A stretch of DNA of 35,994 bases from Escherichia phage PhiR44_2: sequence record PV340564. The stretch is one strand, 5' to 3'. The notes beneath the pieces are model-generated. The model ran no database searches and was not told the origin of the DNA. It worked only from the letters and a program-made list of their open reading frames with translations. Both the position numbers and the translations under genes were made by a program. Positions 34,593-35,823 of this stretch are shown in pieces (the first letter of the stretch is position 1; the number at the start of each line of letters is the position of its first letter).

Positions 34593-34925
34593 ATGGCATT
34601 AATCAAATGTCCTGAATGCCAGAAAGAGGTGAGCGATTCAGCATCGTATTGCCCTGCTTGTGGTAAACAACTGCAAAAACTTAAGCGTTCATTTTTTGGA
34701 CGGATCATTAAGTGGATTTTTATATTATTTAATATTTTTATGATCTATACGCTTTTAGTTGGACTAGGAGGCACTAGTGAAATAATAAATAATGCCACAT
34801 CAGATGCCGAAAAAGCCGGTGCAGTTATTGGTACAGGCTTAGGTTTAATTACCATTGGAAGCTTATGGGTTATTGGCGATATCATTATCGGAATTTTAGT
34901 ATTTCTTACTAAACCAAAGGGATAA
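34593..34925 (+). CDS. Zinc-ribbon membrane protein (N-terminal CPEC...CPAC ribbon, 2 TM helices)
   Basis: 110 aa; strong RBS AAAGGAGG; AT-rich coding sequence unlike the phage backbone. Confidence 0.7.
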   Translation: MALIKCPECQKEVSDSASYCPACGKQLQKLKRSFFGRIIKWIFILFNIFMIYTLLVGLGGTSEIINNATSDAEKAGAVIGTGLGLITIGSLWVIGDIIIGILVFLTKPKG

Positions 34926-34929
34926 TAAA

Positions 34930-35823
34930 ATGAAAAATATAATTTTTTCTATAGGTGCATCATTTATATCAATTAGTGTACTGCCTGTTCACGCAGCAAC
35001 TGAACATAAGAACTTCAATGCAGTACTCCAGTGCCGAGCAATAGAAAATAATAAAGACAGACTTTCTTGTTACGATAAGTCAATACAACCGACTCGAACG
35101 AAAGTTGCTGAAAAATTCGAAAGCAGAGATCAATGCCCTGATGAGAAAGATGATGACAGACGTTTATCTTGTTATGATCGTTTCTTTTCTCCAACATTTA
35201 CTCCATCTGTAAACTCAAAATCTAAAACGGAAAAGCCAGTAACAACAGAGGCTCAGCAACCAAATCTTTCTGAGATATCTAAATGTCGTACAGAAAATGA
35301 TAAAGAAGCCAGACTAAACTGCTACGATAAACTATTCCCACAGGATAAAGCCGTTCAAGCTGAATCAAAATTAGAGAAAGCCACAGATGTAGGAAAATGG
35401 CACACATCCATTACTACATCGCCAATTGATGATTCGAAAAATGTAATTTTATCGTTAGAAAGTGATGATTATATCAGAACTCCATTTGGAGAAGCGGTTA
35501 CTCCTACTCTTTTTATAGCTTGCCGAGAAAAGAAAACCGAAGTATTTCTTAGTTGGGATGTATATTTAGGCCTTGAACAAACCAGCATGCTTTATCGCCT
35601 TGATAAACAGAAAGCAGTTGAGCGAAACTGGCTAGTATCTACAGATACAAAGGCTGTTTTTTATAAAGGTAATGACATTGATTTCATCCGAAAACTAGCC
35701 AACTCAAGCAAAATGTATACAAAAATAACGCCTTATAATGAGAGCCCCGTAAGTGCGACTTTCAATTTAAACGGCCTGTCAAACGCGCTAAAACCGCTTC
35801 AAGCTGCTTGTAACTGGAAATAG
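34930..35823 (+). CDS. Secreted protein with three tandem Cys-containing repeats (C-x8-9-RL(S/N)CYD) and a C-terminal domain of unknown function
   Basis: 297 aa; signal peptide MKNIIFSIGASFISISVLPVHA; repeats QCRAIENNKDRLSCYDK / QCPDEKDDDRRLSCYDR / KCRTENDKEARLNCYDK; AT-rich. Confidence 0.75.
   Translation: MKNIIFSIGASFISISVLPVHAATEHKNFNAVLQCRAIENNKDRLSCYDKSIQPTRTKVAEKFESRDQCPDEKDDDRRLSCYDRFFSPTFTPSVNSKSKTEKPVTTEAQQPNLSEISKCRTENDKEARLNCYDKLFPQDKAVQAESKLEKATDVGKWHTSITTSPIDDSKNVILSLESDDYIRTPFGEAVTPTLFIACREKKTEVFLSWDVYLGLEQTSMLYRLDKQKAVERNWLVSTDTKAVFYKGNDIDFIRKLANSSKMYTKITPYNESPVSATFNLNGLSNALKPLQAACNWK

Follow-up and report, generated by a model that had tools for sequence, protein, structure and literature searches.

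We analysed a stretch of 35,994 nucleotides from Escherichia phage PhiR44_2 (sequence record PV340564; this whole stretch is referred to as the window), which carries a two-gene cassette at the right end of a P88-like prophage integrated at pdxB-flk of E. coli. The backbone of the prophage belongs to the P2 family; in a comparison of 24 kb, 83% of the sequence aligned with phage P88, at 96.5% identity. Gene 1 (34593..34925, + strand) is an open reading frame (ORF) for a zinc-ribbon membrane protein of 110 amino acids (aa). Gene 2 (34930..35823, + strand) is an ORF that starts 4 nt after gene 1 on the same strand and encodes a protein of 297 aa with a predicted signal peptide. An initial annotation of this DNA had described a membrane protein with a periplasmic partner, an architecture that is predicted by the transmembrane (TM) helices of gene 1 and the signal peptide of gene 2.

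The product of gene 2 has a single N-terminal hydrophobic segment (residues 4-23), which ends in VHA↓AT and is not accompanied by a lipobox Cys, in agreement with the signal-like sequence noted initially. Residues 1-22 (MKNIIFSIGASFISISVLPVHA↓AT; 34930..34995, + strand) read as a signal peptide of the Sec/signal peptidase I type that is probably cleaved at this site. Further downstream, a regular expression detects three Cys motifs of the form C-x8-RL[SN]CYD, which together with their linkers extend over 35032..35328 (+ strand) and correspond to codons 35-49 (35032-35076, + strand), 69-83 (35134-35178, + strand) and 119-133 (35284-35328, + strand). Thus, the three repeats of the initial annotation are present, but the spacing it gave as x8-9 is strictly x8, and they are not arranged in tandem, since the motifs are spaced 34 and 50 residues apart. 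All eight Cys of the protein pair (35/47, 69/81, 119/131 and 198/294), which makes four predicted disulfides. In an AlphaFold2 (AF2) model built with 25 homologues, each Cys motif forms a helical hairpin (helix-turn-helix) and the linkers are disordered, with low predicted local distance difference test (pLDDT) values. Residues 152-297 are modelled with pLDDT values of mostly 85-96, and their secondary structure elements follow the order beta7-alpha-beta2-alpha.

This C-terminal beta-rich domain (residues ~152-297 plus the stop codon; 35383..35823, + strand), which the initial annotation had been unable to assign, is VasI/IalB-like. Gene 2 matches the Pfam family VasI (PF11319) with 88.5 bits (gathering score 26.5) and an E-value of 5.6e-25, and its residues 118-296 align to the full profile (positions 1-184 of 184). 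The two extra hairpins also match the N-terminal part of the profile. The top match of the C-terminal domain in a Foldseek search of the PDB is 3DTD, the IalB protein of Bartonella henselae (E 1.7e-6, TM-score 0.61), which is the only significant relative of gene 2 with a solved structure; a sequence search of the PDB recovered no relative. When the hairpin region by itself was used in an exhaustive search, just 11 proteins were recovered, and no functional annotation came with them. Some of these are secreted proteins that consist of repeated Cys hairpins only, of the types C-x8-RLxC(Y/D)D and CRFxKEQDERLxCYN, and that contain no VasI domain, which suggests that the Cys hairpin behaves as an independent mini-domain. 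Moreover, searches of BFVD recovered the VasI/IalB-like fold in uncharacterised proteins of strictly lytic T4-like phages (RB16, KP15 and Aeromonas 65.2), and also in proteins of this kind from the Vibrio phage VH7D and the Serratia phage MTx. Its distribution in phages is therefore wide and not confined to the cargo of prophages.

Gene 1 encodes, from the N- to the C-terminus, a cytoplasmic C4 zinc ribbon, a basic stretch, a first TM segment (TM1), a periplasmic loop, a second TM segment (TM2) and a C-terminal T(K/R)PKG motif. The ribbon is formed by C6, C9, C20 and C23 (CxxC-x10-CxxC) and matches Pfam Zn_Ribbon_1 with an E-value of 1e-7. Hydropathy analysis places TM1 at residues ~38-60 and TM2 at ~81-105, and the predicted topology leaves a periplasmic loop of ~20 residues. 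ORF, Pfam match and hydropathy thus agree with the protein of 110 aa with a CxxC...CxxC zinc ribbon and two TM helices that had been described initially. The alignment of the family contains 22 invariant columns. In PHROGs, gene 1 falls into PHROG 6586 (E 7e-42) and gene 2 into PHROG 1848, and only families of unknown function were recovered for both proteins. The membrane part of gene 1 was also compared to DrpB/YedR, a two-TM division protein of E. coli. Homology between the two is suggestive at best, as gene 1 scores 20.1 bits against NCBIfam NF038392 (cutoff 50) and hhalign returns a probability of 13% (E 0.002); weak precomputed matches to PF28000 are found in several gene-1 homologues.

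The two genes are kept together in many other elements. In IMG/VR contigs that contain a full-length gene-1 homologue and sequence downstream of it, an ORF that matches the VasI profile lies immediately 3' in 38 out of 39 cases. In 58 of the 80 viral loci that were found with the VasI alignment, gene 1 lies directly upstream, and ogr precedes gene 1. The pair is present in P2-like prophages of E. coli, Klebsiella and Dickeya, at different integration sites and with protein identities of 60-70%. Co-occurrence outside this element, which the initial annotation had proposed to check, is thus borne out by the 38 of 39 informative viral loci and by the prophages of Klebsiella and Dickeya. The gene 1 partner is constant (110 aa, 59-79% identity); the VasI-like proteins measure 206-220 aa with one hairpin, 247-250 aa with two and 294-319 aa with three. 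Where synonymous divergence (dS) can be estimated, the ratio of non-synonymous to synonymous substitution rates (dN/dS) is 0.08-0.16, the majority of distant pairs being uninformative because dS is saturated. Such values point to purifying selection acting on the cassette.

Two other zinc-ribbon/TM protein architectures adjoin VasI-like genes. An E. coli P2-like prophage integrated at tamB/ytfP (loci L006-L008, 8001-9126, and L140) holds, in the same slot, a two-hairpin VasI-like gene of 250 aa that converges on the gene for a 98-aa protein with a zinc ribbon and a TM2 domain. In an unrelated element, a protein with two TM segments and a C-terminal ribbon is encoded beside a VasI-like gene. 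We considered whether gene 1 is a homologue of the TM2-type partner; their likeness is confined to the zinc ribbon, and we treat the two as analogous, not orthologous. The prophage at tamB/ytfP also carries an alpha/beta-hydrolase gene between gpD and ogr.

Gene 2 is labelled TagO in RefSeq, and ORF1 of the Citrobacter rodentium phage phiSM has been listed as a cargo gene for a "T6SS VasI family protein" (T6SS, type VI secretion system; Magaziner et al., 2019; PMC6456863). The cassette is present in this functional phage at 98.8% identity. Hence the statement of the initial annotation that no described system could be recognised does not hold for gene 2, given its place in Pfam VasI, its RefSeq name and the phiSM cargo gene. 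To what extent the name TagO describes a function can be judged from a comparison with the TagO protein of a T6SS cluster, which in E. coli Sakai is ECs_0222, encoded between clpV and tssA. Gene 2 is 26% identical to this protein. On the NCBIfam model TIGR03360, which has an equivalog cutoff of 124.2, gene 2 scores 76.5 bits and its prophage relatives 35-78, compared to 257.4 for ECs_0222. Moreover, among the contexts examined, no relative of gene 2 (at least ~36% identity) is located in a T6SS cluster. Instead, the relatives reside in P2-like prophages (Klebsiella at two sites, Dickeya, E. coli and Salmonella), in other integrative elements and in an orphan locus of Photobacterium. The low TIGR03360 score, the 26% identity and the contexts outside of T6SS clusters indicate that the TagO label denotes family membership and not function. 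Judged by its sequence, gene 2 represents a subfamily carried by phages, whose relationship to the VasI/TagO proteins of T6SS clusters is no more than distant. Of the latter, VasI of V. cholerae (VCA0118) is required for T6SS-dependent killing, but not for secretion of Hcp (Zheng et al., 2011; PMC3166118). The orphan gene in Photobacterium phosphoreum (locus L015, 8001-9513) encodes a one-hairpin VasI-like protein and lies ~500 nt 5' of a gene for LprI (PF07007, a lysozyme-inhibitor family). This proximity may be a coincidence or a hint of a role related to peptidoglycan hydrolases.

The base composition sets the cassette apart from its surroundings. In line with the AT-richness noted initially, the GC content of the module is 0.36 vs 0.53 for the rest of the window, and the 1231-nt stretch with the lowest GC content of the entire 36 kb begins at 34501. 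The GC content at third codon positions is 0.27, compared to 0.59 for gpD, and in every host examined gene 1 and gene 2 each lie 8-17 GC points below their surroundings. A consensus scan detects a candidate sigma-70-type promoter for the cassette (TTATCA-16 nt-TAAAAT with a TG extension; 34511..34538, + strand), which sits 3' of the hok terminator hairpin (34339-34362). In Klebsiella, Dickeya and Pantoea, homologues of gene 1 are preceded by a conserved version of this -35/-10 pair, the TTGTCA-N17-TAAAAT of the Klebsiella and Pantoea copies aligning with the promoter of the cassette, and in most phage loci a GC-rich terminator hairpin is found immediately 5' of the promoter. Between the -10 hexamer and the ribosome-binding site lies a conserved 16-nt element, ATGTTTTGTAACAAAT, with the palindromic core TTTGTAACAAA (34543..34558, + strand). 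It is identical or near-identical in the E. coli prophage, the Klebsiella prophages and a solitary chromosomal copy in Pantoea, and could be an operator or an element or signal of the 5' untranslated region. A Shine-Dalgarno sequence, AAGGAGG (34578..34584, + strand), can be read 8 nt 5' of the ATG of gene 1. Directly 3' of gene 2, RNA folding predicts a near-perfect hairpin with a stem of ~20-22 bp (35850..35897); the fold of 35820-35920 has a free energy of -46.9 kcal/mol (z = -8.6 compared to shuffled sequences). The hairpin is not followed by a T-run on either strand, and it probably marks the end of the cassette transcript or is a structural element of the att arm.

The same slot holds different genes in the sister phage Chuche, where Com and a DNA methyltransferase are encoded between hok and int. 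The deviant GC content, the conserved promoter, the 3' hairpin and the other cargo in the slot of Chuche identify the cassette as a moron: an accessory transcription unit that is complete in itself and occupies the cargo position flanked by ogr/hok and attR. The separate acquisition that the initial annotation had read from base composition thus gains in weight, since the genes are AT-rich in all hosts examined, have their own predicted promoter and occupy a slot with other genes in a sister phage. The full 1.66-kb query, which comprises the spacer between hok and gene 1, both genes and the 3' flank, was found in 237 of 5426 complete E. coli genomes (4.4%).

Upstream of the cassette, Pfam and Rfam identify gpD, ogr and a type I toxin-antitoxin hok/sok locus (34044-34330). 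The Hok ORF (34190-34330) matches Pfam HOK_GEF (E 4e-7), and a sok-like RNA match (34044-34203) reaches 48.9 bits in Rfam, under the gathering score of 59; the hok locus had been recognised initially. Beyond the sok-like RNA, the Rfam scan returned nothing but spurious hairpin matches, among them matches of the 3' hairpin at 35850-35897 to miRNA precursors. At the other end, homology to the empty pdxB-flk site starts at 35971: from this position on, the window is matched by 5426 of 5426 complete E. coli genomes, and 35824-35970 is found in just 179 of them. This puts the prophage/host junction at 35971 and the stop codon of gene 2 at 147 nt from attR, which agrees with the position next to attR that had been proposed. 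Only the last 24 nt of the window (35971..35994), delimited by the genome matches, are attR core or the start of the host pdxB-flk intergenic sequence.

Not all copies of the cassette are intact. In one E. coli sublineage (L022, L048-L051 and L053, ~4586-4616), the VasI-like gene is frameshifted in the linker after the second hairpin. Another copy (L020) is broken by an insertion of ~1 kb, and a RefSeq row records an IS1 in the module. The split copies could reflect decay, sequencing errors or a variant with a downstream start. The search of E. coli sequences also returned plasmid matches in nine places. In the plasmid p602354_148 (NZ_CP025848.1, 148 kb), positions 3553-6320, which adjoin a group II intron and an integrase, are what remains of the end of a P2-like prophage; part of gpD is present, as are ogr, hok and the zinc-ribbon gene, and a TagO-like gene is divided into two ORFs.

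Outside of the P2 family, VasI-like genes of integrative elements map to the cargo region on the integrase side or adjoin it, with candidate defence genes nearby (L131, 3669-5517; L126, 4979-5956; L136, 4477-6480). Their neighbours encode an AAA_15/AAA_21 ATPase that is AriA/NsnB-like (PADLOC NsnB, E 2e-51), an FRG-domain protein (PDC-S15) and a NACHT-domain protein. The accessory loci of P2 are themselves reservoirs of anti-phage systems (PMC9122126), and a preprint describes another, third hotspot of P2, which is flanked by a tail gene and CI (10.1101/2024.10.15.618418); the cassette is not listed in the published surveys of P2 defence hotspots. Finally, a protein that is reported to have a VasI-like fold, based on HHpred, has been linked to defence: SDIC4B, a secreted protein of Serratia Defence Island Candidate 4 (SDIC4), on its own protects E. 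coli 10-200-fold against phages (10.1101/2024.01.28.577318). For comparison, we took the coding sequences of SDIC4A and SDIC4B from the plasmid maps of that preprint, whose authors define homologues of SDIC4B by PSI-BLAST with at least 30% identity and at least 50% coverage; the structural model used for SDIC4B is that of a homologue with 90% identity.

The P2 accessory slot, the defence-type neighbours in non-P2 elements and the precedent of SDIC4B lead us to favour, tentatively and with less than even confidence, a T6SS-independent function of the cassette in conflict, namely the exclusion of incoming phages or of other contractile injection devices. According to this proposal, the cassette would be expressed in the lysogen from its own sigma-70 promoter. 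The VasI-like protein would be the active component, working in the periplasm by binding an envelope structure, and the zinc-ribbon membrane protein would anchor, position or regulate it. The benefit would arise in the envelope and independently of a T6SS, most probably in that phage tails or other contractile injectors would be hindered in bringing in foreign DNA or effectors, and the lysogen would thereby be defended or would exclude superinfecting phages. A much broader version of the proposal is that phage-borne VasI-like proteins, usually together with a zinc-ribbon partner, are widespread and so far unrecognised envelope exclusion modules of P2-like prophages and other integrative elements, directed against contractile devices such as myophage tails, tailocins or T6SS spikes. 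VasI/TagO would then represent the ancestor, or a domesticated form, of this periplasmic activity, and an understanding of the phage module would also explain the role of VasI in the T6SS; stated this generally, we regard it as rather improbable.

A number of observations weigh against an exclusion function of the pair. VasI-like genes are solitary in Salmonella P2-like prophages and in ~20 viral loci. Likewise, homologues of gene 1 with 65-69% identity stand alone on the chromosome of Pantoea, where cueR and copA flank them (loci L147, L148 and L149, 5001-5333), and of Haemophilus (H. paracuniculus), between uvrB and leuB (locus L144, 6001-6333); these copies still differ from their flanks in base composition. 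Co-inheritance could therefore partly reflect linkage in one phage lineage. In addition, a frameshift or an interruption affects several copies of gene 2, gene 1 exposes only the ~20 residues of its loop to the periplasm and thus offers little surface for contact with gene 2, and the promoter and the terminator are predictions from consensus and structure. Neither protein has a match in PADLOC-DB v2.0.0 at E-values up to 1, and literature searches on TagO/VasI, DUF3121 and TM2-domain prophage genes yielded no functional study of the cassette. Nor could a relationship to SDIC4 be detected. Gene 2 was examined as a member of SDIC4 and rejected, with a BLASTP E-value of 97 and hhalign probabilities of 0.2% (single sequence) and 0.8% (profile-profile). 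The model of the SDIC4B homologue has no significant match in the PDB, including IalB, and SDIC4A is a secreted protein of 150 aa that, unlike gene 1, has neither a zinc ribbon nor a TM hairpin.

Other explanations have to be considered. The tail of P2 is a contractile machine related to the T6SS, a kinship that would fit with a lysogenic conversion of the host T6SS, in which the prophage supplies an extra TagO/VasI-type accessory protein and a membrane partner that join the resident system and alter its killing efficiency or target range. Such a role would also be in line with the PF11319 match above the gathering score, with the conservation of the Cys hairpin, of Cys198/Cys294 and of the C-terminal CxW, and with the name TagO in RefSeq. 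Moreover, VCA0118 affects killing and not secretion (PMC3166118), and the phiSM copy was classed as T6SS/virulence cargo (PMC6456863). We nevertheless consider it unlikely, because gene 2 falls well short of the TIGR03360 cutoff (76.5 vs 124.2) that genuine TagO exceeds with a score of 257, shares 26% identity with E. coli TagO, and has no T6SS-cluster location among the contexts examined; furthermore, its partner gene 1 is not a T6SS component, and its relatives are dispersed as cargo over several unrelated mobile elements.

Alternatively, the cassette might act on envelope physiology or host interaction and raise fitness in the gut, either as an IalB-like adhesion, invasion or colonisation factor or as a modulator of division or envelope stress through the DrpB-like protein. 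IalB is indeed the sole solved structural relative of gene 2, and a weak Pfam IalB match exists (E 6e-4), yet the latter stays under the gathering score and the mechanism of IalB is itself unknown. The similarity of gene 1 to DrpB extends over the full length and includes the C-terminal TRP(K/R), but it is below all thresholds (20.1 vs 50 bits; hhalign 13%). The solitary gene-1 homologues of Pantoea and Haemophilus, at 65-69% identity, suggest that this protein has a cellular role of its own, and Zheng et al. speculated that VasI might be an adhesin (PMC3166118). However, recurrent location in cargo hotspots of phages and satellites, near defence genes, fits better with conflict, and we give the envelope-physiology explanation little credence. 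Finally, the two genes might be independent hitch-hikers that share a slot, for example through imprecise excision, and that have no joint function and are partly decaying. Each of them is found alone elsewhere, several VasI-like copies are frameshifted or interrupted, and in one Pantoea genome (L149) a P2-like prophage (int, cox) abuts the gene-1 homologue and is oriented as it should be if aberrant, imprecise excision were to capture such a gene. On the other hand, the 4-nt spacing, the single promoter and the single 3' hairpin indicate one transcription unit, the pair is maintained in different genera and at different integration sites, with proteins that are 60-70% identical, dN/dS is well under 1 where it can be estimated, and two further zinc-ribbon/TM architectures stand beside VasI-like genes. 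This makes mere hitch-hiking very unlikely.

Annotations for the two proteins exist, and the cargo has been mentioned in passing in the literature. Four aspects appear to have escaped description so far: a separate subfamily of VasI-like proteins that is carried by prophages and has 1-3 hairpins, the close association of this subfamily with a zinc-ribbon membrane protein that is itself conserved, the occupation of the slot between ogr/hok and att across genera, and the mismatch between the TagO label and the evidence. The last point has a practical side, as genomes rich in prophages can receive too many T6SS and virulence calls through the database label "T6SS-associated protein TagO". Should the cassette exclude phages or injection machines at the envelope, it would constitute a new type of defence that is missed by current finders, and it would provide a simple two-gene handle on the biochemistry of VasI, a protein whose function has been in question since 2011. 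The functional phage phiSM of Citrobacter rodentium offers a tractable test system for the cassette.

How does the cassette compare to known systems? One of the closest is VasI/TagO (PF11319, TIGR03360). Like gene 2, it has a signal peptide, is predicted to be periplasmic and is of unknown molecular function. It has a single C-x8-RLxCYD hairpin, in contrast to the three of gene 2, and then the beta-rich domain that gene 2 also contains, including the conserved Cys and the CxW at the C-terminus. VasI/TagO is encoded between clpV/vasH and tssA, whereas gene 2 occupies a cargo slot of a prophage and is paired with a zinc-ribbon membrane protein, a partner that is absent from T6SS clusters. IalB (PF06776), which is likewise a secreted envelope protein, is the best structural match to the C-terminal domain among solved structures, over 146 residues. 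Its identity to gene 2 is 16%, the Pfam IalB score is 20.4 (gathering score 22.1; E 6e-4), and, unlike gene 2, it lacks hairpin repeats and is an alphaproteobacterial chromosomal gene, its mechanism being unknown as well. DrpB (NF038392, PF28000) can be aligned over the entire membrane portion of gene 1. Both proteins have a pair of TM helices, a periplasmic loop that is short, and TRP(K/R) at the C-terminus, but DrpB lacks the zinc ribbon of gene 1.

SDIC4 is also a two-gene cassette, found in mobile or defence regions of Enterobacterales, and its key protein is small and secreted. SDIC4B belongs to another Pfam family (PF27224) and has no Cys hairpins, compared to three in gene 2. In the AF2 models, the C-terminal domain of gene 2 and the SDIC4B homologue both show beta7-alpha-beta2-alpha, and the order of the elements is all that is alike. 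Moreover, SDIC4 is often accompanied by BrxR, whereas the neighbours of our cassette are ogr, hok and attR, without BrxR. SDIC4 can thus serve as a functional precedent only, and as a weak one, by analogy. In phage T4, Imm, which resides in the inner membrane, and Sp, which blocks the tail lysozyme, form a superinfection-exclusion pair. The cassette shares no homology with these proteins, and the analogy is one of architecture: in both cases a small inner-membrane protein and an envelope-facing protein are encoded by a phage, an arrangement that in T4 protects the infected cell and that, in the cassette, may protect the lysogen.

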